A stretch of DNA of 64,000 nt from Thermodesulfobacteriota bacterium. Lineage in GTDB: Bacteria; Desulfobacterota; Desulfarculia; JACQYL01. Under the pieces are notes generated by a model, which worked only from the letters and a program-made list of their open reading frames with translations, was not told where the DNA came from and did no database searches. The DNA is taken from contig CAXXLZ010000002.1 in the NCBI GenBank assembly GCA_963675595.2, positions 2,336,001-2,400,000 of the forward strand. The letters run 5' to 3'. Of the stretch, positions 22,967 to 62,720 are shown in pieces; position 1 is the first letter of the stretch, and each line of letters starts with the position of its first letter. The translations under genes and the position numbers were made by a program.

Positions 22967-23836
22967 ATGACGCTACAATTCATCATAACCGGCCTAACCG
23001 TCGGCAGTATTTACGCCTTAACCGCGTTGGGGTTCTGCGTGGTGCATAATGCGACGGGGATCGTGAACTTCGCCCAAACCTCGTTCATCATGCTGGGCGG
23101 CATGTTCATGATCACCTTCCTTCAACGCGCGGGGCTCCATGTGATCCCGGCCTTCGTCCTTTCGGTCTGCACCGTGGCCTTGGTGGGGGCCTTATTGGAG
23201 CGGCTCGCCATCCGCCCGTCGCGATCCCGCGAGCCCATCGTTCTCATATTCGTGACCATCGGACTGGCCACTTTTTTGGAAGGCGCCTCCATGCTTGCGT
23301 GGGGCAAACGACATATGACCTACCCTTCGTTCTCTGGAGACGATCCGCTGCATATCATGGGCGCTACCATGATGCCGCAAAGTCTTTGGATTTTCGGGAT
23401 CACCATTGTGACCTTCGTTCTTCTAAGGCTTTTTTTCAGGCACACCCTCACCGGCAAAGCGGTCAGGGCGGTGTGCGCCGATCGCCGCGCCGCGGCTCTA
23501 GCGGGCATCAACGTCAATCGAATGATCATGTTCGCCTTTGCTTTGAGCGGGGCATTGGGCGCCATTGCCGGCATCATCATCACGCCGGTGACGACTACGT
23601 CATATGATTCCGGTCTCATGGTGGGTCTCAAAGGATTTTCAGCGGCCATCCTGGGAGGTTATGGCCGTTTTTCCGGAGCGATCCTGGGAGGGCTGATTCT
23701 GGGCGTCCTCGAATCCCTTTCCGCCGGGTACGTTTCTTCCGCTTATAAGGATGCTCTTGCCTTTATCATCCTGTTGGCCGTGCTCTTCATCCGTCCCACC
23801 GGACTCTTGGGACGGGGCGAAAGCGAACGGGTATAG
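22967..23836 (+). CDS. livH: Branched-chain amino acid-type ABC permease
   Basis: GSIYAL.ALG, GIVNFAQ, GKAVRAV. Confidence 0.88.
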   Translation: MTLQFIITGLTVGSIYALTALGFCVVHNATGIVNFAQTSFIMLGGMFMITFLQRAGLHVIPAFVLSVCTVALVGALLERLAIRPSRSREPIVLIFVTIGLATFLEGASMLAWGKRHMTYPSFSGDDPLHIMGATMMPQSLWIFGITIVTFVLLRLFFRHTLTGKAVRAVCADRRAAALAGINVNRMIMFAFALSGALGAIAGIIITPVTTTSYDSGLMVGLKGFSAAILGGYGRFSGAILGGLILGVLESLSAGYVSSAYKDALAFIILLAVLFIRPTGLLGRGESERV

Positions 23837-23839
23837 ATC

Positions 23840-24808
23840 GTGAACAGAAGAGATACCTTCGGCATTCTTTGTCTAATCTGCGGGCTCACGGTTTTCGCCC
23901 TTGCGATTCGAAATCCCTACTACATTCTGTTGGCCAACGTGGTGGGCCTGAACATCATCGTGGTGATCGGTTTGAACCTCCTCATCGGCTACACCGGTCA
24001 AATATCCCTGGGGCACGGAGCGTTTTTTGGAATGGGAGCCTACCTCTCCGGTGTGCTGACCGCCAATTACGGCCTGCCTCCGTGGCCGACCATGTTGCTT
24101 GCGGTTTCGGTCACTTCATTCGTGGCACTGCTCATCGGCCTGCCCGTGCTTAAGCTCAAAGGTCACTACCTGGTCATGGCCACGCTGGGATTCAACGTAA
24201 TCGTGTCCATATGCATGGTGGAAATGGAATATTGGACCGGAGGCACCTCCGGTCTTCCCGGAATACCCAGTCTCACCATCGGTCCCTGGACCCTCGATAC
24301 CGACCTCGACGTCTTTCCTCTCATATGGGGATTCGCCTTGTCGGTATTGGTGATTTCTTTGAACCTGGTCCACTCGCGGGTGGGAAGAGGTCTGCGCGCC
24401 ATCCACGGCAGTGAAGTGGCGGCCGGAACTTTGGGAGTGAACACGAGGCTCTACAAGATTCAGGTCTTCGTTTTCAGCGCCGCTCTCGCCTCGATTTCAG
24501 GAAGTCTTTACGCGCATTACATCACCTTCATCAGCCCGAAGACTTTCGATTTCTTTTACTCCGTCAAGGTCGTGATCATGGTCATCATAGGGGGGCTGGG
24601 CAGCGTTTGGGGGTCTCTCATCGGAGCCGCGGTCATCACGGCGCTGCCCGAACTTCTCGAAATGGTCGAGGAATACAGTGTTCTGGCCTACGGGCTGATA
24701 CTCGCCCTCGTTCTCATGTTCTTCCCGGACGGACTGCTCCCCGGCCTTGTGGAGGGTTTTCGTAAGCGGTTCGCACACCGGCGGGGAAAGGCCGGCATTT
24801 CAATATGA
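23840..24808 (+). CDS. livM: Branched-chain amino acid-type ABC permease
   Basis: GYTGQISLGHGAFFGMGAY, GRGLRAI, IIGGLGS. Confidence 0.88.
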   Translation: MNRRDTFGILCLICGLTVFALAIRNPYYILLANVVGLNIIVVIGLNLLIGYTGQISLGHGAFFGMGAYLSGVLTANYGLPPWPTMLLAVSVTSFVALLIGLPVLKLKGHYLVMATLGFNVIVSICMVEMEYWTGGTSGLPGIPSLTIGPWTLDTDLDVFPLIWGFALSVLVISLNLVHSRVGRGLRAIHGSEVAAGTLGVNTRLYKIQVFVFSAALASISGSLYAHYITFISPKTFDFFYSVKVVIMVIIGGLGSVWGSLIGAAVITALPELLEMVEEYSVLAYGLILALVLMFFPDGLLPGLVEGFRKRFAHRRGKAGISI

Positions 24809-25617
24809 ACGAAACCAAGCCCCCGATTCATTCCACGAACTCGACGAACGGCCGCCTGCTTTCCGTCAAGGAAGTCGCCAAAGATTACGGCGGCGTGAGA
24901 GCGCTATCGAACCTTAGCTTTCACGTGGATCAGGCCCAGATTCTTTCGCTCATCGGGCCCAATGGTGCCGGAAAAACCACGGCAATCAATCTCGTTTCCG
25001 GCATTTGCCGCCCCTCCGCTGGGGAGGTTCTCCTCGGTGAACATCGTATTTCCCGTCTGCCGTCCCATGAGATCGCCCGCTTGGGAGTCACTCGGACGTT
25101 CCAGAATCTTCAGCTCTTCCGCAACATGAACGTCATTGAGAACGTTATGGTGGGACTGCACCCGAAGACTCGCTGCGGGTTTCTCAAGGGATGCCTTCAC
25201 GCCTTCGGCCACCGCGCGGAAGAAGAAAGCGTGATTCGTCGCGCCGGCGAGATACTGGAACTCACCGATCTGGCCGAGCACAAGAACCGTCCGAGCGACT
25301 CGCTGCCCTATGGTCACCGAAAAAGACTCGAGGTGGCCCGAGCATGGGTCAGCCGTCCGAAACTGATTCTGTTGGACGAACCTGCCGCAGGGCTCAATGG
25401 ACGTGAAACCGAACAAATGGCCGAACTGATCACCCGAATCCGGGATTCAGGCACCTCCGTGTTGCTGGTGGAGCACAACATGGACCTGGTGATGGACATT
25501 TCCGATCATATCGTTGTGTTGAACTATGGTAAGAAAATCGCCGAGGGTGGGCCACATCGGATTTGGAGCCATCCGGAAGTGGTTGAGGCTTATTTAGGGG
25601 GCGGTGCCCATGCTTGA
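24805..25617 (+). CDS. livG: ABC ATP-binding protein
   Basis: GPNGAGKTT, RTFQN, LLDEPAAG, VEHNM. Confidence 0.9.
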   Translation: MNETKPPIHSTNSTNGRLLSVKEVAKDYGGVRALSNLSFHVDQAQILSLIGPNGAGKTTAINLVSGICRPSAGEVLLGEHRISRLPSHEIARLGVTRTFQNLQLFRNMNVIENVMVGLHPKTRCGFLKGCLHAFGHRAEEESVIRRAGEILELTDLAEHKNRPSDSLPYGHRKRLEVARAWVSRPKLILLDEPAAGLNGRETEQMAELITRIRDSGTSVLLVEHNMDLVMDISDHIVVLNYGKKIAEGGPHRIWSHPEVVEAYLGGGAHA

Positions 25618-26344
25618 CGTCCGCTCCCTGTCGGTGAACTACGGTCCGGTCCCAGGCCTGAGGGACGTATCCATCCGGGTCGGCCATGATGAAATCATCG
25701 CAATCATCGGCGCCAACGGAGCGGGGAAGAGCACCCTGCTCAACGCGGTGAGCGGTTTGCTCCGCGCTGCGTCCGGAAAGATCGTGTTTCTTGGAGAGGA
25801 CATTACTCGCCTGTCTCCGGAACGTCGGGTCGCTCTGGGTTTGATTCAGACGCCGGAAGGCCGACGGCTTTTCTCCTCCATGACGGTTCTCGAGAACCTG
25901 CAGATGGGCGCCTACCTGAGATACCGAAGGAAGCAAGGCCCCGCCGTTTCTCAAGACATGGAGCAGGTGTTCGCCCTGTTTCCCGTTCTCACCGCTCGGA
26001 AACGTCAGATTGCCGGAACCCTCAGCGGAGGAGAACAGCAAATGCTGGCCGTGGGTCGCGCACTTATGGGAGACCCTCGCCTTCTTCTGATGGACGAACC
26101 GTCCCTGGGGCTCGCTCCTCTCGTGGTGGGTGAGATTTTCAAAGTCGTTCGACGGTTGCGGAATCCTGAAAGGTCCATTCTTCTCGTGGAACAGAACGCG
26201 CGGGAAGCTCTGGAAAGCTCTACCCGGGCTTACGTACTGGAAGTAGGGTGCTCCCGTCTTTCCGGACCGAGCCGCGAGCTTTGTGAGGACCCCGGAATCA
26301 AAGAGGCATTCCTCGGCAAGCGGCGACCACTTCCCGCCGAGTAG
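25610..26344 (+). CDS. livF: ABC ATP-binding protein
   Basis: GANGAGKST, PEGRRLF, LSGGEQQM, DEPSLGLAP. Confidence 0.9.
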   Translation: MLDVRSLSVNYGPVPGLRDVSIRVGHDEIIAIIGANGAGKSTLLNAVSGLLRAASGKIVFLGEDITRLSPERRVALGLIQTPEGRRLFSSMTVLENLQMGAYLRYRRKQGPAVSQDMEQVFALFPVLTARKRQIAGTLSGGEQQMLAVGRALMGDPRLLLMDEPSLGLAPLVVGEIFKVVRRLRNPERSILLVEQNAREALESSTRAYVLEVGCSRLSGPSRELCEDPGIKEAFLGKRRPLPAE

Positions 26345-45345: not shown

Positions 45346-47460
45346 TCATTTGGAAGCCGCAACCTCACCTAACGGAAGCCGTTTGAAGCGGCCGCCCACC
45401 ACGATGGGATCGCCTTTGTAGCCCAGTTTTTCGAAGTCGATGTAATCGGTGGAGTTCACCAGGTCGAGCACGTCCCTGCCTTTGTAGTAGAGCTGTTTGA
45501 AATCCACTCCGGCGGAAGCCAGGGCCTTGAAGTCCACGTCCCGGTTGTCCTGGTGACAACGGTTGCACGTTTTCTCCCCGGTCAGGCTCTTGTGGCATTG
45601 CACGCAGGAAAGAGCACGTTCCTTGGGAACGATCTCGTGGTTCAGGCCCCAATACATCTTGGTTTCCACCCACTCGAATTCACCGCTGTAAGGCAGGCCC
45701 GCCGCCTCCATGCCGTCCTTCAGGGACTTCTGCCAATCCAACGTCTTCCAGTAGCCTCCGGGGCCGAAAAGATGCGGAGCCAGCAGGATCCGGTTTTTCG
45801 CATCGGCCGGCTGCTTTCCGGCCATGATCTTGAACGGGTAGATTTTCGATTTGGGATCGCGGATGTCGCCCACGGGTTCCGTGATGTTCACCACGCCCGA
45901 GTCGGGAATCCGGTCGCCCAGCAGTTGACGTTTCACCTTGCCGTTATACCAAGTGTACACGGGCTTCACGCTTTCCTTCCAGAGGAACTCCCCTTTCTTC
46001 CAGAAATAGTCGGGCATGCCGTATTTGTCTTTGTTCACTACCCGCTTCTTGTCGCCGGCCTTGGACCAATCCCACCAGGTCTTGGTCGGCTTGCATTTGG
46101 CATAGATGGGACTGTGACACGTGACGCAGGCCAATGTTTCCGCGTGGCGATTCAGGTGGTGGGAAAGCAGATTCCCGCTCACGTGCGCCGGAGCGGAGTG
46201 ACAATCCTCGCAGGACCGGCTTCCCTCGGCCACGGGAAGGGAGAGGCTTCTCCCGGATATCTTGTGATTCCGGGTCTTGTGGCAATCCCGGCACTGGAAG
46301 TCCAGACCGCCCATGTGAACGTCGCAATTCCTGGAAGGATAATAGAGTACTCCGTTCATATCGCCGTGCTTGACGGCGTCCCCGCCTCCTCCCTGGAAGT
46401 GGCAGTCGCCGCAGTTCTTCCTGGTGGGTTTGCCCACGCTTTTGGCGACCTTGACCAGGTCCACCTGAGGATACGGCATTCCGGCGTTGGGAGGCGATTT
46501 CCGATAGGTGAGGGTCCCATCGTGACACACCAGGCAGTCCATACGGGTCTTGTCGGAAAAGTCGAAGTTCGCGTCCTTCCAACCGTAACCCGCGTGGCAA
46601 CTGGTGCATCGAGGCCAATTGCTCGGCAAAGCGATGCAGAAGTTGTTGATGGTGTTGGTGGCTTTTCCCGATTGGACCTGTTTTTCATGCCCCACGGTAT
46701 ACGGGGAAGGGCCTTTCCACAACCAGTGGGCCGCGGTGAGCATGTCTTCCGCCTGCGCGTCGTGACACCTCAAACACTCCCGGGTGACCTGAGTCGGTTC
46801 CGGATTGTCCGGCAGTTGAACCAGCTTGGAATGATCGGGGACCTGTTTCCCATGGCAATCCGTGCATCCCACGGGACCTTGTCCCATCTCTTTGTGGCAC
46901 CCCATACATTGCCTGTGATAGGCCGCCTTCAATCCCACTCGACCCGGCACCTCGGGCTTGAAGGATTCCTGATGACAGGCGGCGCAACGCTCGGTTTCCG
47001 ACGCGGCCGGGTCATCCGGACGGTAGTGGTGGCACTTGAGACAATCCCCCACCTTGGCCGCATGCTTCTTGTGCATAAAGCGAACCGGCTCGTAGTCGTT
47101 TTCCTCTTTCTGAAGGATGGGACTGTTCAAATACAGATATCCATGTTTCAGCTCGTTCATGGTGGGAGCCTGATCGCCCAAACGTTGCTTCCGCTCCCAG
47201 GATGATTCCTCCTTTACGTCTTTCACGAAGGCCACCGGTTCGGCGGCACGCTGCTCGGCCTCCAACTGATCCACGGGGTGGAAAGGAGTGCCGTCGGGCA
47301 TCGTGGGTTCCGGAGGAGGAGGAAGTTCCATGGCGGGAGCGGCCTTGGCCGCCGCCTTCTCCTCTGCGGTGGTGCCGACCCCCTGAAACAGAAAGGCCAA
47401 GCCCACCAGGATCACCAGGATCGAACCGGCCAAAAGCCGGGATTTCTTTTTCATGCTCAT
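45346..47460 (-). CDS. 13-heme cytochrome c: class III (c3-like) tetraheme domain fused to octaheme tetrathionate reductase (OTR) domain
   Basis: 13 CxxCH counted; OTR hallmarks HWLW, GK..NNFC, CTSCHAGYGW, GGGGDAVKHGD. Confidence 0.85.
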   Translation of the reverse strand: MSMKKKSRLLAGSILVILVGLAFLFQGVGTTAEEKAAAKAAPAMELPPPPEPTMPDGTPFHPVDQLEAEQRAAEPVAFVKDVKEESSWERKQRLGDQAPTMNELKHGYLYLNSPILQKEENDYEPVRFMHKKHAAKVGDCLKCHHYRPDDPAASETERCAACHQESFKPEVPGRVGLKAAYHRQCMGCHKEMGQGPVGCTDCHGKQVPDHSKLVQLPDNPEPTQVTRECLRCHDAQAEDMLTAAHWLWKGPSPYTVGHEKQVQSGKATNTINNFCIALPSNWPRCTSCHAGYGWKDANFDFSDKTRMDCLVCHDGTLTYRKSPPNAGMPYPQVDLVKVAKSVGKPTRKNCGDCHFQGGGGDAVKHGDMNGVLYYPSRNCDVHMGGLDFQCRDCHKTRNHKISGRSLSLPVAEGSRSCEDCHSAPAHVSGNLLSHHLNRHAETLACVTCHSPIYAKCKPTKTWWDWSKAGDKKRVVNKDKYGMPDYFWKKGEFLWKESVKPVYTWYNGKVKRQLLGDRIPDSGVVNITEPVGDIRDPKSKIYPFKIMAGKQPADAKNRILLAPHLFGPGGYWKTLDWQKSLKDGMEAAGLPYSGEFEWVETKMYWGLNHEIVPKERALSCVQCHKSLTGEKTCNRCHQDNRDVDFKALASAGVDFKQLYYKGRDVLDLVNSTDYIDFEKLGYKGDPIVVGGRFKRLPLGEVAASK

Positions 47461-48626
47461 GCGTGTCCCTCCTCTTTACGCGCGCTGAGGACCGGCAAGT
47501 AGGTCACACATAGTCGGTAAAAGAAGATGATCGAGGACGTCAGCCCCAGAGTGATCGCGATTTCCCCCACGTGAGGATAATAAGGCCGCACCGAGTACGC
47601 GGGCTGAAATCCCACGATGAAGACGTTCATTCGATTCAGAGCCACACCGAGCACGATCAAGGTGCAGGCCACGAAAAGCCATTTTCTGGAACGCCTGACC
47701 CCCGGCATAAGCAGCATAATCCAGGGCAAGGCCACGCCTCCCAGCAATTCCACCAGAAAAGAATGACTCTGTGCCGACCCTTCCAGCAGATAAACGTACG
47801 CTTTTCTGACCACGAGATCGCCGATCTTCAGGGCCAGGTAGATGCCCAACAGGGCAATGGTGATGCGCGTCAGAGGCCTGAGGATCTCCATCTCGTCTTC
47901 AAGGCCGAAGGACCCGGTGGCCAAAGTGGTTTCAAACACCACCATGGGATACCCCACCGCGATGGCCGAGGTAAGAAACAGCAGCGGCAGTATGGGTGTA
48001 TACCAGAGGGGATGGACCTTGGTGGGCGCGATCAGCAGGAGCGAGCCGAGTCCGGACTGGTGCATGCAGGAGAGGACCACGCCCAAGATGATGAGGGCAG
48101 GCATGATCTTTTCCAGAAAATGACCGATCTTGTGCAAAATAGGGAGGACCTTCCCTACGCGTTCGGAAATCACCGGCAGGAACTCGAGGTGAAGCACCGT
48201 GGTGTACACCATGACGCACATGGCTACCTCGAAGAGCACCGAATTGGGCTGCCAGTAGAATATGGGATGCCAGACCGCCCAGTACCGACCGATGTCGAAA
48301 AACAACCCCACGGCCACGAAGGTGTACCCCAGCATGGCGGTGAGCAGCGCCGGACGAGTCACCCCCTCGTACCGACGGCGCCCGAGTATCTGTACCAGCG
48401 CCGCGGTGGTGAATCCGCCGGCCGCCAGAGCCACACCGGTAGCCACATCGAAACCGATCCAAAGACCCCACGGATAGTAGTTGTCCAGGTTGGTTACGGC
48501 TCCCAAGCCGCCCACTAAACGGGCGATAATGAAAAGGAGGCCCAACAACATGAACGCGAACAGCAACTGTGTGCCCGGAGTCCAGAAACGAGCCTCCAGG
48601 GGACGTGGTGAACCATGGGCATCCAT
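47457..48626 (-). CDS. NrfD/HybB/HmcC-type integral membrane quinol-interacting subunit
   Basis: YPWGLWIGFD, DIGRYW, SVLFEVAMC, MHQSGLGSL, HPLWY. Confidence 0.88.
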   Translation of the reverse strand: MDAHGSPRPLEARFWTPGTQLLFAFMLLGLLFIIARLVGGLGAVTNLDNYYPWGLWIGFDVATGVALAAGGFTTAALVQILGRRRYEGVTRPALLTAMLGYTFVAVGLFFDIGRYWAVWHPIFYWQPNSVLFEVAMCVMVYTTVLHLEFLPVISERVGKVLPILHKIGHFLEKIMPALIILGVVLSCMHQSGLGSLLLIAPTKVHPLWYTPILPLLFLTSAIAVGYPMVVFETTLATGSFGLEDEMEILRPLTRITIALLGIYLALKIGDLVVRKAYVYLLEGSAQSHSFLVELLGGVALPWIMLLMPGVRRSRKWLFVACTLIVLGVALNRMNVFIVGFQPAYSVRPYYPHVGEIAITLGLTSSIIFFYRLCVTYLPVLSARKEEGHA

Positions 48627-49534
48627 CACTCTCCTCCATTCCTTTCCTTCCGATGATTGACCCACATGAAACCGGCCAATACCGCATACAGGCTCGCCGG
48701 GGCCCACATATAGCTGAAGATGCCGTGCTGGATGGTCTCCGTCAGTTTGGGCATGGGTTTGGCGGGTACCTTTTGAAATCCCACCTTTTCGAAGGGAACC
48801 CCGGACAGGTACATCCACGAAGTCCCACCGGCCTCGAATTCGCCGTATATCGCGTCCACATATCGTCCGGGATCCCGACGGATCTTTTCATGAGCCAGTT
48901 CGAGAAGCCGGGCCCGTGGTCCGAACCGGATGGCCTCCACGGGGCATGCGGCCGCGCATCCGGGCTTTCCCCCATCCTTGACGATGCGGTCGAAGCAAAA
49001 GGTGCACTTCCTGACCTGAGGCGCCAGGGCCTCGTGGTATTCATAAGCCGGTATCTGGAACGGACAGGCCACCAGACAGTAGCGACAACCGATGCATTTG
49101 GACGCATCGTAGTGGACCGGGCCGTAGTCCTTTTTGGTCAGCGCCCCCACGATGCAGGCCGAAACACACGCGGGTTCGAGACAATGCATGCACTGCACTT
49201 TGACGAAAGTAGGAACAAGCTGATTCCTCTCGTCCACCCGTCCCGGATACCACCGGTTCACCACCGTATAAGCGCCCACGTCCGGACGCCGTTTTTCATC
49301 CAGGACCCTGGGATCGTCAAAAGGGATCGCCGGTTCGGGAAGCCCGTTCACTTGGTTACACGCCTGTTCACATTTGCGACATCCTACGCAGACCGTCAGA
49401 TCGACCAGGCATCCATAAGCCCCGCCCGCCGGGTCGTCGGAAACGACTGCGGGAAAAGCGGCGGACGGACTCAGCGCCCAAGTCGTACCGCTCAAACCCA
49501 CAAATCTCAAAAATGCTCTACGATCCATACCCAT
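48626..49534 (-). CDS. Tat-exported 4Fe-4S protein (HybA/HmcB type)
   Basis: DRRAFLR Tat; four Fe-S Cys groups; GGTSWMYLS; C-terminal TM. Confidence 0.88.
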   Translation of the reverse strand: MGMDRRAFLRFVGLSGTTWALSPSAAFPAVVSDDPAGGAYGCLVDLTVCVGCRKCEQACNQVNGLPEPAIPFDDPRVLDEKRRPDVGAYTVVNRWYPGRVDERNQLVPTFVKVQCMHCLEPACVSACIVGALTKKDYGPVHYDASKCIGCRYCLVACPFQIPAYEYHEALAPQVRKCTFCFDRIVKDGGKPGCAAACPVEAIRFGPRARLLELAHEKIRRDPGRYVDAIYGEFEAGGTSWMYLSGVPFEKVGFQKVPAKPMPKLTETIQHGIFSYMWAPASLYAVLAGFMWVNHRKERNGGE

Positions 49535-49755: not shown

Positions 49756-51126
49756 ATGAACGAGCAGGAACTGCAGGTTTACTGGAAAGATATCCTGAAC
49801 ACCATGAACGAAGGTTTGATGCTCATCGGGGCGGACGGGACGATTCTATTGGCCAACAAGGCCCTCTCGGACCTGTCCGGGTACTCGGAAGAGGAACTTG
49901 TAGGGTCCAACTGCTCCCTGTTTCATTCGGAAATTTGTGAACATGCGAGACTGGAAGGCGGCGCCAAGTGGTGCACCCTGTTCCAGGAAGGAACCTTCAA
50001 CATGAAACGGTGCCTGATCCTTAGAAAGGACGGCACCTGGGTCCCGGTGCTCAAGAACGCCGCCGTACTCAAGGCACAAGACGGAAAGCTGCTGGGAGCC
50101 GTGGAAACCCTTACCGATATTACGGAAATCCACAAGCGAGACCAGCGTATCGAACAGCTTTCCCGATTGCTCGAAGACACCGGCAGCTTCCACGGGTTGG
50201 TGGGCAGGTCCGCCGCCATGCAACACGTTTATGAAATCGCGGAAAGGGCCGCGCAAAGCGACGCCCCGGTCATTATTTATGGAGAAAGCGGGGTGGGAAA
50301 GGAACTCGTGGCCGAAGTCATCCACGATGTGGGCAAACGGCGGGACGGTCCGTATGTTGCTCTGAATTGCGCCGCCCTTAATGAATCTCTCCTGGAAAGC
50401 GAGTTGTTCGGTCACCGAAAGGGCGCCTTCACGGGTGCCTACCGCCACAACGTGGGGAGATTCGAGGCCGCTCACGGAGGCGACATCTTCCTCGATGAAA
50501 TCGGCGATCTGCCCCTGTCCATGCAGGTGAAGTTGTTGCGGGTCCTGGAATCCAAAGAGTTCGAGCGAGTGGGAGACCACCGGTCCATTTCGGTGGACGT
50601 CCGAATCATCGCCGCCACCAACCGGGACCTCGACAGATTGGTGGCACAAGGCCTGTTCAGGCAGGATTTCTATTTCAGGATCAACGTCATCCCAATCCAC
50701 GTTCCGCCGCTGCGGGAACGCATGGAGGACGTTCCCCTGTTGGTCCGCCATTTCATCGAAAAACTGGTGGAAAGAACGGGCAAGCGAATCCATGGAATCG
50801 CATCCGAAACCATGGACCTGTTCATGCGTCACTCGTGGCCCGGCAACGTCCGGGAACTCAAAAGCGCGTTGGAATACGCCTTTGTCATCGCGGACGAAGG
50901 GCACGTGGAACCTCGCCACCTGCCCGCCTCGATATTAGGAAAGGACATGATTCGGCAACAGATCGTACCGGACACGGAAGGAGAGGAGAAAAAGGCGCTT
51001 CTCGAGGCTCTGGACAAGGCCGGAGGCAATCAGACCAAAGCCGCCGAGATATTGGGAGTCTGTCGAACAACCGTATGGAACCGGATGCGAAAATACGGAA
51101 TTCAGATCAACAAAGGACTGAACTGA
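49756..51126 (+). CDS. PAS-AAA+-Fis sigma54-dependent activator, paralog of 36703-38085
   Basis: GESGVGKE, GAFTGA, WPGNVREL, RTTVWNRM HTH. Confidence 0.92.
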   Translation: MNEQELQVYWKDILNTMNEGLMLIGADGTILLANKALSDLSGYSEEELVGSNCSLFHSEICEHARLEGGAKWCTLFQEGTFNMKRCLILRKDGTWVPVLKNAAVLKAQDGKLLGAVETLTDITEIHKRDQRIEQLSRLLEDTGSFHGLVGRSAAMQHVYEIAERAAQSDAPVIIYGESGVGKELVAEVIHDVGKRRDGPYVALNCAALNESLLESELFGHRKGAFTGAYRHNVGRFEAAHGGDIFLDEIGDLPLSMQVKLLRVLESKEFERVGDHRSISVDVRIIAATNRDLDRLVAQGLFRQDFYFRINVIPIHVPPLRERMEDVPLLVRHFIEKLVERTGKRIHGIASETMDLFMRHSWPGNVRELKSALEYAFVIADEGHVEPRHLPASILGKDMIRQQIVPDTEGEEKKALLEALDKAGGNQTKAAEILGVCRTTVWNRMRKYGIQINKGLN

Positions 51127-54821: not shown

Positions 54822-55182
54822 GAAAAGCACTATATATAACCCGGGGTCCGGGATACAACGGAATAGTCGCCCGGAGCGACATCAAACGTCGGCACATACG
54901 CGGTCTTTCTTCGGTCGCCGCTTGATATTCGAGGGATAAATCCCTATGGTTGCACAGTTCGGTCATCATTGGCATAGGTTCTTGCGTTTTCGAAATCGGC
55001 TGTGCCCGCAGCTTTCTTCGGGTCTCACGTGACGCGCGTCCTATATGAGGTCCGAACGTTATTATTCGGAGAGTGATCCTTCGGCGCCGTTCGAGGCGGG
55101 ACTCGGTCGGGTCGCAGCTTCGAAGAATCAAAAACGCCGTTCCGCACCATCGACACGCTTAGGAAACCCCGAGGTGGAGCCC

Positions 55183-56037
55183 ATGACTGAAGCAGCCGAC
55201 CGTCGCTCGGCCGAAACCCTCGCCGTCCCTCCCCGTGTGGTGTCCGTTGTCTTCGCAGCCGGCAAGGGAACAAGAATGACCGGGTACGACGGCAACAAGA
55301 CCTTGCTGCCCTTATTACCCACTGATTCGCCTTTCCAGGGGGCGCGCCCCCTCCTTCACGAAGTGCTGTCCAATCTTCCTTCGGGCCCCAAGATTCTTGT
55401 GGTAAATCACCGAAAAGAAGACGTCATTTCAGCCACCGAGGAATTCGAGGTTTCCTGTGCCGAGCAGCCCGTAACCAACGGAACCGGGGGCGCTTTATTG
55501 GCGGCCCGGCCTTTGCTCATGGACGCCGTGGAGTCCGTGGTGCTTATCACCATGGGAGACGTGCCCCTCGTGCGCCGGAAAACCTACGAAGACCTCGTCG
55601 ACATGGCGCGTTACGCGCCTCTGGTGGTATTGGGGTTTCGTCCTTCGGAGCCGGCGCGTTACGGAGCCGTGGAAATGTCGGAAGAACGAGTTCGGCGAAT
55701 TACGGAATGGGCCTACTGGAAGGACTACTCCCCGGAGAAACGAGCCGGGCTCACGATTTTCAATTCCGGTATTTACGCGGCACAGAGAGATGTCCTTCTG
55801 GAAATGCTCCCCAAGCTCGAAAGGAATCCACATGTCGTCCACAAAGAACGGAACGGGCGCGTGGAACCCATCGAGGAGTTTTTCATTACGGATCTGGTGG
55901 AATTGATGGTCGCCGAGGGCATGTCCCCGAATTGTGTGGTCTGCGCCGATGAACGGGAAGTAATGGGCGTGGATACTCCGGAGGCTTTGAGGAGAGTTCA
56001 AGAAATCTACCGAAAACATTGGGCCGACTCCGCTTGA
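55183..56037 (+). CDS. NTP transferase (GlmU N-terminal-like), no acetyltransferase domain
   Basis: AAGKGTRM...K, Q...GTGGA, GDVPL, NSGIY, EFFITD. Confidence 0.8.
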   Translation: MTEAADRRSAETLAVPPRVVSVVFAAGKGTRMTGYDGNKTLLPLLPTDSPFQGARPLLHEVLSNLPSGPKILVVNHRKEDVISATEEFEVSCAEQPVTNGTGGALLAARPLLMDAVESVVLITMGDVPLVRRKTYEDLVDMARYAPLVVLGFRPSEPARYGAVEMSEERVRRITEWAYWKDYSPEKRAGLTIFNSGIYAAQRDVLLEMLPKLERNPHVVHKERNGRVEPIEEFFITDLVELMVAEGMSPNCVVCADEREVMGVDTPEALRRVQEIYRKHWADSA

Positions 56038-56159
56038 AAAAAGCCCCCTCTCCCGGCTTCCGGTATCCAGACCAATCCCGTCCATCGAATACCGGCGAGA
56101 CCGTGGGAAGCCCGCCCCACTTCATTACCGCACGGTTCGAAACCGGCTTCTCCCTCCGA

Positions 56160-58004
56160 ATGGAAAAAGACGACCTGCATCGAACTCTGACGATTCAACA
56201 TGCCGGGGAGCTTTGCATCGGATTCCTTTCCCGAACGGCGCCCACTGAATTGGAGGGGTTCGAGAAATGCTTCGCCCAGATTGTGGAAAAATCGGACTGG
56301 GAGTACCCCGAGGAATCTCTGGTCCGAAGAAGTTTCGCCGGATATGCCTCCTTTGGATGCGCGAACGCCCCGTGGGGCGTCTTCGAAATCAAAGCGCAAC
56401 CCGACGCGCCCCGTACCATCCGCGGTAAACAATACCAGATTCTCGTGGCCGGCCTTTTCCTGGACTTCCTACGTTCCACGAAAAGGTCCCGATTCGAACA
56501 GGTTAAGGAAGAGTTCGAGGAACTCCTGGACTCGCTGATCAGAGCCTACTACGGATCCACATCCAACATCACCGGAGAAGACCTCAATCTGCTCCGAGAA
56601 GAGCTGAACCGCATCGGCCTGAATTATTTTCAGGTGTCCGGACATGTGAGGGAAGGTCATGTCCGGACCGAGACTCACCTGTCCGAATTCGAGGAACTCG
56701 CTCTCATTTGGGGAAGAGGCCCCATGATGGAAAAACGAATCGAAGAACTTCGGCGTCTCGCCCGGTCCCCCATGCCCATTCTTCTCACCGGAGAGACCGG
56801 TACGGGAAAGACCTTCTTAGCCGGTTTGATCCATAAGCTCAGTCCTCGGGCGGAGCGCCCCTGCTTGACGATCAACTGCGCCGCCATCCCCTCCAATCTG
56901 TTGCAGAGTGAACTATTCGGATATCGACGCGGCGCCTTTACCGGAGCGGTGCACGACAAGATGGGACTCCTCAAGAGCGCTGAAGGCGGGACCGTCTTGC
57001 TGGACGAAATCGGCGACTTGTCCAAGGAGGACCAAGTCAAGCTGCTGCAGGTATTGGAGGAGGGCAGAATATTGCCTTTGGGAAGCCTTAAAGAGACCAA
57101 GGTCGACGTTCGCTTTCTGGCGGGAACCAATCGCCCTTTGGAAGAAGACGTAAGAGAAGGACGATTCCGCAGCGACCTGTACTTCAGGCTCAAAGGAGCC
57201 CATTTTCATTTGCCCCCCTTGCGGGAACGTATGGAAGTCTTCGACGAATTGGTGCTGAGAATACTCCGACGCACGCTTCCGGACGAGAATTCTCCGCCCC
57301 GGCTCGCTTCACCGGAGGCCATGGAACTTCTGCGACTCCATTCATGGCCGGGCAACGTTCGGGAATTGGACAATGTGCTTCGGCGAGCTGCGGCTTTGGC
57401 GACGGGCGGCACCATCCGTCCACAACACTTACCCGACGAATTGTTGCCCGATCGATTCGTTCCTTTCCGGGGAGAATCCACTCGACGCCGGCTGTTGGCG
57501 CTCACATTGGCGGGGCTGGGACTGAACGATCCGTATCTAGGCAATCTCCTCTACGAAACATCGGGCATGAGTTTCACCGTCAATGATCTCTTGGTTCGCC
57601 ATCCGGCACTGGCGGCCGCAGGCGAAACGATCCGCCGTGAAAGCGTCTTGCGTAAGGCCCGGCGTCTCCTCGCGCCCTGCAAAGGTCCGATTCTCGAAGA
57701 GAACGGGCGTAGAGGTCCCGCGGTCCGTCTGCGTCTAAAACCGGCATTTCTGGAGGAGAACGACCGGCGACTGTTCCAAGCCGTGGACTCGGCGGTCCGC
57801 CGGGTGGGAGCTCCCAAACGCACCGCCTTCGCCCTGTACGACGCACTCAAAGCACATGCAGGCGAAGACACGCCCCTGGCGGTTCCCGCCGCGATGGCGG
57901 GACTTCGCCTTGCTGAATTCCTGGGCCTGATTCGTTTGATTGAGGAACAGGGGCAGGCGAAGGTTGAAGGAGACATGGTTCGTATTGAAACAACATCGTG
58001 TTGA
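56160..58004 (+). CDS. Sigma54-interaction AAA+ regulator with unrecognised N- and C-terminal domains
   Basis: GETGTGKT, ELFG...GAFTGA, LLDEIGD, FRSDLYFRL, WPGNVREL; no canonical Fis HTH. Confidence 0.85.
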   Translation: MEKDDLHRTLTIQHAGELCIGFLSRTAPTELEGFEKCFAQIVEKSDWEYPEESLVRRSFAGYASFGCANAPWGVFEIKAQPDAPRTIRGKQYQILVAGLFLDFLRSTKRSRFEQVKEEFEELLDSLIRAYYGSTSNITGEDLNLLREELNRIGLNYFQVSGHVREGHVRTETHLSEFEELALIWGRGPMMEKRIEELRRLARSPMPILLTGETGTGKTFLAGLIHKLSPRAERPCLTINCAAIPSNLLQSELFGYRRGAFTGAVHDKMGLLKSAEGGTVLLDEIGDLSKEDQVKLLQVLEEGRILPLGSLKETKVDVRFLAGTNRPLEEDVREGRFRSDLYFRLKGAHFHLPPLRERMEVFDELVLRILRRTLPDENSPPRLASPEAMELLRLHSWPGNVRELDNVLRRAAALATGGTIRPQHLPDELLPDRFVPFRGESTRRRLLALTLAGLGLNDPYLGNLLYETSGMSFTVNDLLVRHPALAAAGETIRRESVLRKARRLLAPCKGPILEENGRRGPAVRLRLKPAFLEENDRRLFQAVDSAVRRVGAPKRTAFALYDALKAHAGEDTPLAVPAAMAGLRLAEFLGLIRLIEEQGQAKVEGDMVRIETTSC

Positions 58005-58106: not shown

Positions 58107-59807
58107 ATGAACGGACGTAATATCAGGAACATGGGGGCTCAGACGGGCCGATATCTTTCTTGGATAGGCGCACTGCTGGTCCTTGTTCTGGTACTCCTGC
58201 CGGCCTTGTTTCCGCCGGAAAGACGTCCCTCGCCCGTGGGAAGCGCCCCAAGAGCGGGAGGAGAGCTCAGGATCGACCTTCCCATTCCTCTGGGAGAATT
58301 CGATCTGCACTCTAAGTCGGGTAACGGAGCCTCCTTCGCTCTCCAAATGATGGTCAACATGCTTTGCCGTCTCGGGCCCGACGGTTCACCGCAGCCCGAA
58401 CTCGCCAAGTCCTGGACAATGACCCAACAAGGCCGAAAGTGGGAATTCATTCTCCATTCCCATGTCCGTTTCCACGACGGCACTTTCATGACTCCCAGGG
58501 ACGTCATCTATTCCCTGGAAACTCAATTTCGAAACGTGATTCCCCAGTTTCTGCGCATCGCCCGGTTTCGCGAAGATTCTCATCCGGATCGGGTGCTCGT
58601 GGAACTGGACCACCCGGTTCCCAACTTTCTGTCGTATCTTGCCTACGTCCCCATCTTCCCGTCCGGATCCTTCTCAAATCCACGCTGGTTCTCACATCCT
58701 GTGGGCACCGGTCCCTTTCGATTCCAGAGTCGCGACGGCCGGCGGGTGATCGTCCTCTCCTCCTTTCAGGATTATTTTGAAGGACGTCCCTGGCTCGATC
58801 GGCTGGTGCTGCGCCACCCCGGAGGTGAAGCGGAACTCCCTTGGAGGCTGTTGGAAGAAAAGACGGACTTGGTGCTGGAAATGAACCCCTGCTATGATTC
58901 CCTGCTGAAGACGGCCGATCACCTCCTTCACGTCGAGTCCGGCCCTCAGCATGTTCATTTCGTAATTCTGTTCAACACGAGCAAGCCTCCCCTAAACGAT
59001 GCCCGCATCCGAAACGCCCTGGCCATGGGCATTCAAACAAACGGTTTGAGCCCGAATCTTTTGCCCGACAAACAGAATCCGATGTTCGTTCCCTTGTCGA
59101 ATCAAAGATTCCAGCGCGCCGTGGAACTTCTGTCGGAGGCCGGTTGGAGAGACCACGACGGAGACGGCTACCTGGACAGAAACGGACAACGATTCGAGTT
59201 CTCCATCCTGGTGCCGGAAGAATATGCGCCCGAATACGACACCGTTTTGCGGGTCATGGCCCAGTGGAAACGCTTGGGAATCAGAGCCGACTGGCATGGG
59301 GGAAGCTACGCGAATCACTATGAAACGCGTCTCAATCCGGGCGATTTTCAAGCGACCTTATTCTATTTCCGACTCATGCCCGACGAGCCCGAATTTCTAT
59401 ATAATTTATGGCACCATAGCGGAATATGGAACTTCAGTCGTTATCACGACGAGGAAGCGGATCGCATTATCGAGGCCGCCATGACGGAAAGCGATCCTCA
59501 CCGGCGGCGGGACCTCTATGCCGGACTGAAGAAGGTCCTGGATCGGGACCATCCTTTCATTTACCTGGGGAGCAAACAGGTGAGCTGTTCCCTGTCCAAC
59601 TATTTTCAGGGCATGGAAGAAATTTACGGCCAAGGCCGATTCTCAAGAAGGTTTCACAAAGTCCGCCTGCTGGATGGAGCGCGCCCGGGCTCGCACCAGT
59701 TGACCGCCTACGCCCGGTCGCAGCCCCGAGCATTCTGGCAGACCTGGTTTCATCCGCTGGACCGGGTGGTCCGGACACTCTTTCCCATCGAGGACGATCA
59801 GAAGTAA
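58107..59807 (+). CDS. Orphan family 5 (Opp/Dpp-type) peptide-binding protein
   Basis: PELAKSW, VRFHDG...T..DV.YS, PVGTGPF, NFSRY; N-terminal hydrophobic segment; alternative start 58131. Confidence 0.82.
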   Translation: MNGRNIRNMGAQTGRYLSWIGALLVLVLVLLPALFPPERRPSPVGSAPRAGGELRIDLPIPLGEFDLHSKSGNGASFALQMMVNMLCRLGPDGSPQPELAKSWTMTQQGRKWEFILHSHVRFHDGTFMTPRDVIYSLETQFRNVIPQFLRIARFREDSHPDRVLVELDHPVPNFLSYLAYVPIFPSGSFSNPRWFSHPVGTGPFRFQSRDGRRVIVLSSFQDYFEGRPWLDRLVLRHPGGEAELPWRLLEEKTDLVLEMNPCYDSLLKTADHLLHVESGPQHVHFVILFNTSKPPLNDARIRNALAMGIQTNGLSPNLLPDKQNPMFVPLSNQRFQRAVELLSEAGWRDHDGDGYLDRNGQRFEFSILVPEEYAPEYDTVLRVMAQWKRLGIRADWHGGSYANHYETRLNPGDFQATLFYFRLMPDEPEFLYNLWHHSGIWNFSRYHDEEADRIIEAAMTESDPHRRRDLYAGLKKVLDRDHPFIYLGSKQVSCSLSNYFQGMEEIYGQGRFSRRFHKVRLLDGARPGSHQLTAYARSQPRAFWQTWFHPLDRVVRTLFPIEDDQK

Positions 59808-59932
59808 CCTGCTGAAATCCCGACACTTCCTGCGAAAAAACCACTCCAATTCCCTGCCGAACACCTCTGCACGCTTCTTGCCTCTCCTTGCGACGACGCG
59901 CGTTCAAATCCAACACACAAGGAGAAACCGCA

Positions 59933-60019
59933 ATGCACGTAACGATTCGTTTGGCAACGTACGATTTCCGCTCGGCGCAACAGCTCTGCTGCTATATCGG
60001 CCCGCAAATTCTGACCTAA
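59933..60019 (+). CDS. Putative RiPP precursor peptide, 28 aa: MHVTIRLATYDFRSAQQLCCYIGPQILT
   Basis: Strong RBS AAGGAG 8 nt before ATG; Cys-Cys motif; directly upstream of a radical SAM/SPASM gene. Confidence 0.75.
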   Translation: MHVTIRLATYDFRSAQQLCCYIGPQILT

Positions 60020-60056
60020 GAAACCGATCAAGCCCGCCGGCCGGCTGATTTCATTC

Positions 60057-60086
60057 AGGGGTCTCCGGACCCCTTTTTACCTTTTT
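60057..60086 (+). terminator. Terminator-like hairpin between precursor and maturase
   Basis: AGGGGTC-TCCG-GACCCCT (UNCG tetraloop) followed by TTTTACCTTTTT. Confidence 0.65.
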
Positions 60087-60099
60087 CTCGGGGAATTCC

Positions 60100-61455
60100 A
60101 TGCATACGATCAACCCTGTTCCCTCCAGGTATTTGGTGGAACACGAAACAGCTTGGGACGGGACGCCTTGGACGGTCCTGTTCCATTCCCTGAACCGGGG
60201 TCTCAAAATCCTGGAGCCCTCAATATGGCGGGACTTCCAATCCGGAAGAATGGATGGGAGGCATCGGCCGCTGTTCCAGGAACTGTGCGAAATGGGATTT
60301 CTGGTGTCGCCCTCGCTGGACGAAACCAGATTGCTCTCCAATTGGCGTTACAGCCGATTCCTGGATACCCGCTCCATGACGTTCAAAATCCAGGTGACGG
60401 AAGCCTGCAACCTGCGATGCGTATTCTGCATTCAGGAGGGCATGAAGGGGCCGGTTCACATGTCCGACGAAACCTCTCGCCGGTGTGCCGCGCTCATCGA
60501 AGAACTCATTGAAAGCAGGCGCCCGGACTCCATCAAGATCATGATCACCGGAGGCGAACCACTGCTCAACTTTGAAAGCATCCAAACGCTTGGGGCTCTG
60601 GTTCATTTCTGCAGGGGCCGAGGAGTCGACGTTGAATTCAGCCTGACCACCAACGGGGTGCTTCTGGATCGTTCCACGGCGAGAAATCTCAGCCGTTTGG
60701 GCATGCATACGGTCCGCGTCTCTCTGTTCGGTCCGCCCGATCTTCATGATCGACACCGGGTGTTCGAAGGCGGCCGAGGGTCCTACGATCTCATCGAGCG
60801 CAACCTCGTTGAAGCATCGGAGTTTCTGACTTTCCGTCCCGCGATCCAGTACGACGAGGACACCTCCGACTACCTCCGATATCCCGAGCTCTTTGATCGT
60901 CTGCTGGACGTCGGACTGGGCGGTTCGGTGCATGACATGGAATTCGGTGCTTTGCTTCCCCGCGAACTGGATTTCGACCGACGCGCCCGGCCGGATTGTT
61001 CAGGCCCGAGCCGTCCCGACATCTACTTCTTCCTGGAACAAGAGGCTCGGAAACGGGGATTCCGTGAATTGGGACCGCCGCCTTCCGTGGGATGCCTCGC
61101 CAACCGGCGAGGTTCCCTGGTCATCGACGTCAACGGCAACCTGATAAGCTGTCCGGGAGTTTCCCACGAATGGCACCCGGAGCTCACGTATGGGAACGTG
61201 TACCGAGGCGTGGATTTCACCGCGGAATCCCAGATCATCGCCCCGCCGTTGCCGGACGGCTGCGGTGAATGCTCCCTGGCCGGCCTGTGCGACGGCGGTT
61301 GTCGCCAACAAGCACTGGTCGGAAGCGGAACCTTTCACGGTGTATTCTGCAGCAAGGAATATCTCGAGTCCGTCATACGGCAATACATGGAAGACACGGT
61401 GATCGGGTATCTCAAAGAAAACGCGCCCCGATTCAACAATGCCCAAGCGGCATGA
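60100..61455 (+). CDS. Radical SAM/SPASM peptide maturase, resembling geopeptide-type maturases
   Basis: N-terminal RRE-like region, CNLRCVFC, GGEPLL, TTNG, SPASM C...C...CGECSLAGLCDGGC...C. Confidence 0.88.
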   Translation: MHTINPVPSRYLVEHETAWDGTPWTVLFHSLNRGLKILEPSIWRDFQSGRMDGRHRPLFQELCEMGFLVSPSLDETRLLSNWRYSRFLDTRSMTFKIQVTEACNLRCVFCIQEGMKGPVHMSDETSRRCAALIEELIESRRPDSIKIMITGGEPLLNFESIQTLGALVHFCRGRGVDVEFSLTTNGVLLDRSTARNLSRLGMHTVRVSLFGPPDLHDRHRVFEGGRGSYDLIERNLVEASEFLTFRPAIQYDEDTSDYLRYPELFDRLLDVGLGGSVHDMEFGALLPRELDFDRRARPDCSGPSRPDIYFFLEQEARKRGFRELGPPPSVGCLANRRGSLVIDVNGNLISCPGVSHEWHPELTYGNVYRGVDFTAESQIIAPPLPDGCGECSLAGLCDGGCRQQALVGSGTFHGVFCSKEYLESVIRQYMEDTVIGYLKENAPRFNNAQAA

Positions 61456-62720
61456 ACCGGCATCTCCGAATCCTGGCCGGGGCGGACTTTCTCTCCGTTT
61501 CGGCCGGACAACTATTGGGGTTGGCTCTTTGTGAGCTCCTGGTTTTAGGCAGACACCAGGGCGAGAGGAATCTGCTCTTCCTCTTGGCGGCCGCTCAGAC
61601 ACCGGCTTTTTTGCTCTCCTTCGTATCGGGCGGACTACTGGATCGGTCCAACCCTGCGCGCATCCTTTTCGTCTGTGGGGCGGCCAAGGCCCTGCCCGCG
61701 CTTCTTCTCTCCCTCGTTCCCGGCTCCCATGTGGTTGTGTTCCTCATCTACGCCTTCCACTCCGCGGCGGACCTGCTTCATATTTCGGCCAGGAGCACTT
61801 TGGTGCCCTTTCTCTTCCCTCCCGAAGACATCATGCATGCCAATGCGTTTCGGCAAAAAGCGGCTTTGACCGGCGGCATCTTGGGGCCCATCTGCATGGG
61901 CTGGATCGTGTCGCAGGCAGGACCCGTCAAGGCACTCATTTTGTGCGCCTTTCTTTGCTTCATTTCCGGAGTGCCGGGAGTCCTTCTGATGAAACCCTCG
62001 GAGATGTCACGACGACGACTCGTCCGGGAATCTCCGCCTCCGTCCGCCACGGCGCGAAACCTGCCGGTTCTCCAATGGCTTCTCCTTCTGTTCATGTCCG
62101 CCGGGGCGGGCGGGCTGTTCCAGTACGCGTCGCCTCTTTGGATCGACGGCCGATCCTGGGGAAATGCCGCAGCCTTGGGCGCCGTATTCTCGCTGTTCAA
62201 CGCCGGCTCCTTCGCAGGAGCAATCCTGGTTTCCAGAATGGGATGTATGTCGAGAGTCCCGATGCTCAGATTGGGCATGATTTCGGAAGGCGCCGGGATC
62301 CTCGCTTTGGCCGCACCTCTCTGCTCCCTCCCGCCGTTTCTTGGTATTTTCATGTTCTTGGGAGTCACCTCTGTTTCTCGTCATATCCTTATCGAGAGTC
62401 GGATCCAGGCGTTGGCCCCGCCGATGTTCATGGGACGAACCATGTCCGCAGCGTACGGCCTGAGAGCTCTGGCAACGGTCTCCGGGGCGGGATTGGGTTT
62501 TCTGGTGTTCTCCCGTTTCGGCATCAACGCCCTGCTTCTGGCCTGCGGATTTTTTCTGTTCCTCGGCGCTCTGTGCAATCCGCCGTCCCCGGCTTCGTTG
62601 AAAGAAGGATTCAAGCCTTTCAGCCGCGCACCCCTCCGCCGCGGGGCTGCAGTTTCGCCTCCCATCCCGGCCGAACAAAAGGCTCCGTCTTGCAAGGAAC
62701 GCCCGAATCTGTCAGACTAA
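61452..62720 (+). CDS. MFS transporter (macrolide/peptide exporter-like)
   Basis: ATGA overlap with the maturase stop; GGLLDR motif A; about 12 TM; IQ...P..MGR. Confidence 0.8.
   Translation: MNRHLRILAGADFLSVSAGQLLGLALCELLVLGRHQGERNLLFLLAAAQTPAFLLSFVSGGLLDRSNPARILFVCGAAKALPALLLSLVPGSHVVVFLIYAFHSAADLLHISARSTLVPFLFPPEDIMHANAFRQKAALTGGILGPICMGWIVSQAGPVKALILCAFLCFISGVPGVLLMKPSEMSRRRLVRESPPPSATARNLPVLQWLLLLFMSAGAGGLFQYASPLWIDGRSWGNAAALGAVFSLFNAGSFAGAILVSRMGCMSRVPMLRLGMISEGAGILALAAPLCSLPPFLGIFMFLGVTSVSRHILIESRIQALAPPMFMGRTMSAAYGLRALATVSGAGLGFLVFSRFGINALLLACGFFLFLGALCNPPSPASLKEGFKPFSRAPLRRGAAVSPPIPAEQKAPSCKERPNLSD

Follow-up and report, generated by a model that had tools for sequence, protein, structure and literature searches.

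The stretch of DNA considered here (the window) covers 64,000 nucleotides of a Thermodesulfobacteriota bacterium, positions 2,336,001 to 2,400,000 of contig CAXXLZ010000002.1, and towards its 3' end it holds a compact cassette built around a very short open reading frame (ORF) at 59933-60019 and the gene for a radical S-adenosylmethionine (SAM)/SPASM enzyme that follows it. The ORF translates to MHVTIRLATYDFRSAQQLCCYIGPQILT, in which a leader of approximately residues 1-17, including the strand HVTIRL, is followed by the pair Cys19-Cys20 (codons at 59987-59992) and an eight-residue tail, YIGPQILT. Judged from its sequence and its conservation in related genomes, this ORF is a genuine gene, more than a chance open frame, and its product is almost certainly the substrate of the enzyme. 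Genes for a transcriptional activator and a solute-binding protein precede the pair, and a gene for an efflux-type transporter follows it (Table 1).

The sequence agrees with the original prediction, which had described a 28-codon ORF served by an AAGGAG ribosome-binding site and had not touched on the conserved genes for transport and regulation nearby. The mechanical ORF listing holds this frame only as a 43-residue ORF starting at TTG 59888, but ATG 59933 is favoured as the start because of the ribosome-binding site and the starts of the homologues.

Table 1. Features of the cassette in the window
Feature	Position	Strand	Details
Putative precursor peptide gene	59933..60019	+	28 residues and stop; ATG 59933, TAA 60017-60019
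Ribosome-binding site	59919..59924	+	AAGGAG, 8 nt 5' of ATG 59933
Hairpin followed by T-run, between peptide and enzyme genes	60057..60084	+	GC-rich; 7-pair stem, 5 GC pairs, then TTTTTACCTTT
Radical SAM/SPASM peptide maturase (predicted)	60100..61455	+	451 residues; Pfam Radical_SAM 4.5e-16; best NCBIfam TIGR04280
Maturase, predicted N-terminal recognition (RRE-type) domain	60127-60369	+	approximately residues 10-90
Maturase, CX3CX2C motif	60406-60429	+	C103-C110
Maturase, seven-Cys SPASM motif	61093-61350	+	C332-C417
Sigma-54-dependent activator (AAA+ enhancer-binding)	56019..58004	+	Pfam Sigma54_activat 8.7e-60, residues 232-394
Family-5 solute-binding protein (AppA/NikA/NikZ-like)	58107..59807	+	Pfam SBP_bac_5 2.3e-47; N-terminal membrane anchor or signal
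Degenerate sigma-54-type -24/-12 element (candidate)	59867..59882	+	CTGCACGCTTCTTGCC, TG for GG; ends 50 nt before ATG
Major facilitator superfamily (MFS) efflux-type transporter	61452..62720	+	TIGR00900; weak EntS-like match; ATG overlaps enzyme TGA stop (ATGA)

A small family of Cys-Cys peptides

A single scan of representative genomes with an alignment of seven enzyme sequences returned seven loci (L001-L007), all of them from Thermodesulfobacteriota, Syntrophobacter, Desulfarculia, Desulfococcaceae and related metagenome-assembled genomes. A search upstream of the closest maturase homologues had been proposed beforehand as a check on the peptide, and it gave a comparable ORF at all seven loci: 29-34 residues long, containing Cys-Cys, preceded by a GGAG-type site, and lying directly before the enzyme gene in the same orientation. 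With the window included, precursor and enzyme occur together at eight of eight loci, which bears out the suggestion that the ORF serves as precursor for the adjacent maturase. The enzymes are merely 31-50% identical across the loci, yet the position of the ORF, its ribosome-binding site, its length and its Cys-Cys pair are kept in every case. Read in six frames, 123,095 bp of sequence contain the pattern CC-x3-P-x4/5-stop at 12 sites, eight of which are the precursor ORFs; in composition-matched shuffles the count averaged 1.26 and never exceeded 4.

The family extends beyond these loci. A profile of the eight peptides, run against 1.84 billion representative proteins, produced 15 matches at E <= 0.001, of which 13 are Cys-Cys peptides of 27-35 residues (two identical to locus peptides) and two are off-target, a 1300-residue protein and a 111-residue repeat protein. 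A word-indexed search of 5.8 billion proteins, queried with a peptide alignment whose first row was the window's 43-residue mechanical ORF, returned 19 short Cys-Cys peptides, all named at most 'hypothetical protein'; the window's own peptide is not among these 19. Scans with Pfam and NCBIfam place the peptides in no family, and the eight locus peptides match no NCBIfam model even at E <= 10. As a separate observation, the off-target repeat protein (P0132) contains five tandem copies of ECYWGPTS-x-DV and may itself, from its sequence, be a multi-core precursor of another peptide system.

Across 23 distinct peptides the Cys-Cys pair is the sole invariant position (23/23), so that its designation in the original prediction as the key feature of the core is upheld. 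A Pro at the CC-x3-P spacing, or one residue further on in P0125, is found in 20 of the 23. In the alignment of 19 peptides the tail after Cys-Cys has eight residues in 17 and nine in L003 and P0125. In the leader a hydrophobic strand is retained, with Gly or Ala and then an aromatic residue after it, and the peptide subtypes track the enzyme clades. The residue that directly follows Cys-Cys may be Y, I, W, A, Q, D, G, L or S, with no aromatic in a fixed column. A crosslink involving Tyr had been suggested from the window peptide; as only six peptides in the 19-row alignment have Tyr after Cys-Cys, such a crosslink is improbable as the hallmark of the family and was discarded as a family trait. 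The hydrophobic character ascribed to the core holds for the subgroup formed by the window, L001 and P0124, to which the hydrophobic tail is restricted, but not for the family as a whole, most members of which end in x-x-R-x.

That 59933-60019 is instead a chance, untranslated open frame in an intergenic region has to be considered, since the ORF is shorter than the usual gene-calling lengths and the window peptide is missing from the peptides returned by the larger search. Codon comparisons also fail to help the coding case, in that three close pairs give no clear synonymous excess: the differing codons are 3 synonymous against 10 non-synonymous for L005/L006, 7 against 14 for L002/L004 and 7 against 15 for the window and L001. 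Because these comparisons are uninformative, the argument for coding rests on the retention of the ORF, its ribosome-binding site, its length and its motif. This retention at all eight loci, despite the low identity of the enzymes, together with the independent gene calls that public collections hold for 19 family members, makes a chance origin extremely improbable.

The spacer between the peptide and enzyme genes is itself a recurring element. In the window it carries the GC-rich hairpin and T-run of Table 1, which is likely to be a partial terminator or attenuator, and the matching spacer folds into strong hairpins in the window, L002, L003, L004, L005 and L007 (-24.8 to -60.3 kcal/mol per stretch folded). 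For L001 and L006 only a short stretch was folded, as the enzyme start was taken too early.

The maturase and its predicted recognition of the leader

The enzyme has the elements of a radical SAM/SPASM peptide maturase. In alignments of 15 and of 32 sequences the three cysteines of the CX3CX2C motif (C103, C107 and C110) are invariant, as are the seven of the SPASM motif (C332, C351, C388, C391, C397, C401 and C417) and two glycines, G346 and G400. By these defining sequence features the window system belongs to the radical SAM/SPASM peptide systems, with no assignment to the sactipeptide or ranthipeptide class. Close relatives are few among the 5.8 billion proteins, at 52%, 50%, 36%, 35%, 36% and 32% identity. 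When the maturase and a geopeptide maturase were compared with plasmids by tblastn, identity was at most 31.4% among the matches listed and at most 28.2% at a query cover of at least 80%.

The best curated match is to TIGR04280, the 'geopeptide radical SAM maturase', which aligns essentially full-length (profile positions 16-422 of 428) and scores 196.6 bits where the cutoff is 400. The next NCBIfam matches, all under their cutoffs, are TIGR04463, PapB, CefB, QhpD and CcpM; like the geopeptide enzymes, these act on Cys-rich peptides. The geopeptide maturases share enzyme length and domain order with the window enzyme, and both occur in anaerobes of Desulfobacterota type. They differ in that true members (P0012-P0017) score 456-661 bits against TIGR04280, whereas the relatives within the window clade (P0003-P0008) score 180-238. 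A tree of 32 proteins gives the Cys-Cys clade, with seven rows including the window maturase, a support of 100/98 and sets six geopeptide rows within a separate seven-row clade supported at 100/100. Since the window maturase lies under the score cutoff and in a separate clade, it is placed outside the curated geopeptide family, and the proposal of a subfamily new relative to the geopeptides is thereby sustained at the level of the maturases. A literature search found no paper on geopeptide or TIGR04280, a name that comes from NCBIfam only.

An AlphaFold2 model of the maturase, with a predicted local distance difference test score (pLDDT) of 91, places three strands (residues 12-19, 22-29 and 34-38) and three helices (40-47, 53-64 and 75-88) before the core. 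In the model this N-terminal part has the layout of a peptide-recognition domain, that is, a recognition element of ribosomally synthesised and post-translationally modified peptides (RRE); the PqqD model of Pfam gives no match to the enzyme. A Foldseek search with the model returned CteB (5wgg) first, with an E-value of 1.1e-17, a template modelling (TM) score of 0.66 and 469 aligned columns that include the N-terminal domain, followed by anSME, ChlB, TigE, SuiB and SkfB. CteB is also the first match in a sequence-profile search of the PDB (3.7e-24). The CteB/CteA system (PDB 5wgg, 5why) resembles that of the window in its N-terminal recognition domain, radical SAM core, SPASM domain and Cys-donor substrate, although the sequence identity of the two enzymes is only 16-17%. 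CteB, a thioether synthase, is the maturase of a SCIFF ranthipeptide. SCIFF precursors are approximately 45 residues long with six Cys, unlike the peptides of the window family, which have 27-35 residues and exactly one Cys-Cys pair, and SCIFF operons are not known to include a binding protein, a TonB receptor or an MFS pump.

Co-folding of leader and recognition domain had likewise been proposed in advance as a check. It was carried out with the L003 pair (a 432-residue enzyme and a 34-residue peptide), not with the window pair, and gave a score of 0.65, against 0.02 for the best of three controls. As a calibration, 116 of 157 solved complexes score this high, as do 2 of 215 mismatched pairs. 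Contact agreement between runs is at least 41%, and the pLDDT of the partner is at least 47. With confidence, the model brings peptide residues 5-14 and 16 into contact with enzyme residues 23-33, 49-57, 73 and 76, which make up the third strand and the next helix of the N-terminal domain. The peptide residues concerned align with HVTIRL of the window peptide and lie on the recognition domain, in keeping with the beta-strand-like leader originally proposed; as modelled, the leader strand docks on the N-terminal recognition domain of the maturase.

One observation on the enzyme genes stands apart. At L004 the enzyme gene (3983-5236, + strand) is split over three frames (3983-4330, 4336-4644 and 4673-5236), although the peptide, binding-protein and activator genes of that locus (594-1985) are intact. 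The split gene is either a decaying copy or the result of assembly indels.

Proposed modification of the Cys pair

The favoured interpretation, to which a probability of roughly 0.7 is attached, is that the ORF is a real precursor gene, that its product is paired with the adjacent enzyme and modified by it at Cys-Cys, and that the modified product is exported. Owing to the hairpin and T-run between the two genes, more precursor than enzyme would be made. The HVTIRL strand would then pair with the recognition domain as an additional beta-strand, as modelled for the homologous pair, and the fixed spacing from this strand to Cys19-Cys20 would bring the Cys pair to the active site. There the enzyme would abstract a hydrogen atom and bond one or both Cys sulfurs to carbons of the eight-residue tail. 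Export of the resulting product, of approximately 1-1.2 kDa, would fall to the EntS-like MFS pump, whose gene is translationally coupled, and outside the cell the product could be recaptured or perceived via the family-5 binding protein and, in some genomes, a BtuB-like TonB receptor. Expression of the cassette would be under sigma-54 control. A product of approximately 1 kDa, corresponding to the core without its leader, is suggested by the MFS pump and a receptor of BtuB size.

With regard to the chemistry, the chances are about even that the enzyme joins one or both Cys sulfurs to tail carbons to form one or more small thioether-bridged rings about the Gly-Pro turn. The proposal draws by analogy on the nearest relatives, CteB, PapB and QhpD, and on the role of the auxiliary cluster in PapB and Tte1186; the Cys donors that it calls for are present in the core of all 23 peptides. 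According to an excerpt of PMC10177961, the substrate Cys contacts the auxiliary cluster in PapB, and in both PapB and Tte1186 a substrate Cys or SeCys binds that cluster before C-S bond formation. The PapB/PapA (freyrasin) and QhpD/QhpC systems share Cys-donor chemistry with the one proposed here, but the matches of the window maturase to PapB (120.3 bits) and QhpD (98.6 bits) are far under the cutoffs of 340 and 453 bits, and the window family has no conserved Asp or Glu after Cys.

Acceptors at a fixed distance from the donor include Asp or Glu in PapA (motif C-x3-D) or QhpC and Thr in CteA. In the columns that follow Cys-Cys in the 23 peptides no conserved Asp, Glu or Thr was found, and only the Pro is common. 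The lack of a conserved acceptor side chain makes a link to an alpha-carbon, or to the position of the conserved Pro, the most natural guess, as an alpha-carbon acceptor of the sacti type needs no conserved side chain. The aromatic-x-x core motif of triceptides was not found in the 19-peptide alignment.

Several observations weigh against this account of pairing and modification. The pLDDT of the L003 partner is so low that the partner's own fold is uncertain, and the success of the model may partly reflect likeness to solved leader-enzyme complexes, since those of CteB with CteA and SuiB with SuiA exist. Moreover, the model is confident for the leader only, and the Cys-Cys core is not confidently placed. 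The tail alignment of 19 peptides shows no conserved acceptor with a functional side chain. Furthermore, the fold does not fix the reaction, as the structural neighbours are chemically diverse: anSME oxidises Cys or Ser, SuiB makes a C-C bond and TigE, according to an excerpt of PMC10878394, makes cyclopropylglycine.

It is conceivable, if less likely than a thioether, that the enzyme modifies the Cys pair in another manner, for example by beta-carbon oxidation as in anSME, by epimerisation or by a C-C link to a tail residue, so that a new functional group arises. The structures of anSME, TigE, SuiB and ChlB are almost as close to the model as CteB, the tail has no conserved acceptor residue, and the literature search for geopeptide and TIGR04280 found no paper on the chemistry of that family. 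Set against this are the sequence neighbours, PapB, QhpD and the SCIFF maturases, which make Cys thioethers, and the lack of a positionally conserved aromatic residue, which cyclophane formation would require.

Transport genes, regulation and possible roles of the product

The gene directly 5' of the peptide gene encodes the binding protein at all eight loci. The window protein matches the NCBIfam models Opp4A, Opp5A_nikA and nikA, in each case under the cutoff, and its best sequence match in the PDB is AppA (1xoc, 1.1e-23). Foldseek with a model of moderate quality (pLDDT 70.6) gives AppA, then NikZ, NikA and CntA; AppA is a nonapeptide binder and the other three are nickel-chelate binders. 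By eye, the binding proteins of L005, L006 and L007 have a Cys-containing signal end of lipoprotein type. The MFS gene lies 3' of the enzyme gene at six of the eight loci (the window, L001, L003, L005, L006 and L007); L002 has none, and the L004 contig stops short of that position. A gene for a BtuB-like TonB receptor is situated 5' of the binding-protein gene at three loci (L002, L005 and L006), the window being without one, and a dCache-HAMP histidine kinase of AtoS/ZraS type is encoded 3' of the MFS gene at two (L005 and L006).

At four loci (the window, L001, L003 and L004) a sigma-54 activator gene precedes the binding-protein gene. A Pfam scan of the window activator revealed neither a receiver domain nor HTH_8, and its N-terminal portion of approximately 230 residues and C-terminal portion of approximately 180 residues can be aligned with L001 (2-1897) and belong to no Pfam family. 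An Atlas search with the N-terminal part gave no usable match. In L005 an ORF that ends just before the TonB receptor gene (3-107, + strand) closes with a Fis-type helix-turn-helix (HTH_8 22.9 bits, cutoff 22); as this is the usual C-terminus of sigma-54 activators, L005 probably has an upstream activator too. In L004, L005, L006 and L007 a canonical GGCAY-N5-TTGC element is found 60-78 nt 5' of the peptide ATG, and these sites account for four of just seven matches in 246,190 positions. Near matches are present in L002 and L003. A scan of 59600-60400 in the window found no sigma-70-like site.

This gene content has a parallel in the methanobactin operons, which, according to an excerpt of PMC7558416, combine the exporter MbnM, the TonB transporter MbnT and the OppA/AppA-like periplasmic protein MbnE. 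As far as that excerpt describes them, these operons (with MbnA as precursor) resemble the cassette in having a short Cys-containing precursor, a modifying enzyme, an inner-membrane exporter, a family-5-type binding protein without its own ABC permease and, for some of the loci, a TonB receptor. They differ from it in having MbnB/MbnC in place of a radical SAM/SPASM enzyme and a MATE in place of an MFS pump, and the hosts of the cassette belong to strict-anaerobe lineages. No MbnB/MbnC-type enzyme came up when the cassette genes of the window and of the seven loci were scanned with Pfam. The full transport set is also unevenly represented, the binding protein being present at 8/8 loci, the MFS pump at 6/8 and the TonB receptor at only 3/8. 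The likeness is one of function by analogy, not of membership.

Because the exporter, TonB receptor and OppA-like protein mirror those operons, a metal carrier is the preferred role for the product, followed by a self-sensed signal peptide. A secreted and recaptured metal-carrying peptide remains a tentative proposal by analogy. Slightly less likely still is the fuller version, in which the product is a radical-SAM-made metallophore of approximately 1 kDa belonging to strict, sulfide-exposed anaerobes, with EntS-like export, BtuB/NikA/AppA-like recapture, sigma-54 control, and a thiophilic trace metal such as nickel, cobalt, copper, zinc, molybdenum or tungsten as its cargo.

A number of findings count against the export, recapture and regulation set out above. 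The nearest structures of the binding protein fail to separate a metallophore from a plain peptide ligand. Pfam scans of the window and the seven loci show cassettes without an ABC (ATP-binding cassette) permease or ATPase for the binding protein and without a leader-removing protease, and an Rfam scan of the same DNA detected no metal-sensing riboswitch, its only match being a transfer-messenger RNA (tmRNA) in L003. If both thiols were held as thioethers, binding of soft metals would be weakened. Finally, the window element (CTGCAC-N5-TTGCC) lacks the -24 GG and that of L001 is wrongly spaced, such that evidence for a sigma-54 element in the window itself is weak.

The product could alternatively be a secreted autoinducer that leaves through the MFS pump, is taken up or sensed by the TonB receptor and the binding protein and then activates its own sigma-54 promoter via the activator or, in L005 and L006, via the dCache histidine kinase. 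The activator, without a receiver domain, bears an unassigned N-terminal region of sensor size, the kinase gene follows the MFS gene in the two genomes just named, canonical sigma-54 elements stand directly before the peptide gene at four of eight loci, and among solved structures the binding protein is closest to AppA, which binds nonapeptides. However, an invariant Cys-Cys with a variable tail fits metal or redox chemistry at least equally well, and TonB receptors are more typical of the uptake of scarce nutrients than of signalling. An autoinducer is on balance rather unlikely, and ranks behind the metal carrier.

An antimicrobial bacteriocin of the sactipeptide type, with the neighbouring genes providing export and immunity, is less probable again. 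According to the abstracts consulted many sactipeptides are antimicrobial, and the cassette does contain an efflux pump; but Pfam scans of the cassettes show no immunity protein, peptidase-domain ABC exporter or dedicated protease, a TonB receptor and uptake-type binding protein of the producer's own would import the toxin, and the core, with eight or nine residues after Cys-Cys, is very short.

Radical SAM/SPASM maturases are a main source of new peptide chemistry, and new precursor families have tended to reveal new crosslinks. Literature searches on radical SAM peptides with such neighbours found, in titles and abstracts, no description of this peptide family or cassette. The family is small and sharply defined, comprising approximately 23 peptides with one invariant Cys-Cys, a tail of 8-9 residues and a minimal set of four to five genes, which makes it readily amenable to co-expression and mass spectrometry. 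For such peptides it is unusual to be constantly accompanied by an uptake-type binding protein, an EntS-like pump and sometimes a TonB receptor, and this company points to a product that is released from the cell and later retrieved. Were the product a metal carrier, it would show how sulfate reducers and syntrophs gain trace metals that sulfide strips from solution, and as a metallophore it would be an anaerobe counterpart of methanobactin arrived at via unrelated chemistry. Were it a signal, it would represent a rare peptide signalling system in diderm anaerobes.

An NTP-transferase gene (NTP, nucleoside triphosphate; GlmU-N-terminal-like, 55045-56037) was considered as a further member and rejected, as it has no counterpart in the seven loci. 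Before it, at 54970-54985 (+ strand), lies TGGCATAGGTTCTTGC, which is sigma-54-like with a spacing one base too long. The next gene after the cassette, at 62796, encodes pyruvate kinase. At L003 the cassette MFS gene is directly followed by the tmRNA gene (6576-6928, + strand, 180.9 bits) and then by a phage-type integrase gene (6936-8141, - strand), an arrangement that suggests the boundary of a genomic island.

The remainder of the window encodes multihaem cytochromes, an NrfD-type complex, aldehyde:ferredoxin oxidoreductase, rubrerythrin and several sigma-54 activators, a gene content that indicates an anaerobe of Desulfobacterota type. Genes for a multihaem cytochrome c (704 residues), an NrfD-type membrane protein and a 4Fe-4S protein occupy 45346-49534 on the - strand and are adjoined by that of a PAS sigma-54 activator at 49756-51126. 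A canonical sigma-54-type element, GGCATGGAGTTTGC, is found at 22387-22400 (+ strand), 5' of an ORF at 22463-22933; downstream of it too is a branched-chain-type ABC transporter operon (22967-26344), followed by genes for an AMP-binding ligase and a Peripla_BP_6 protein.

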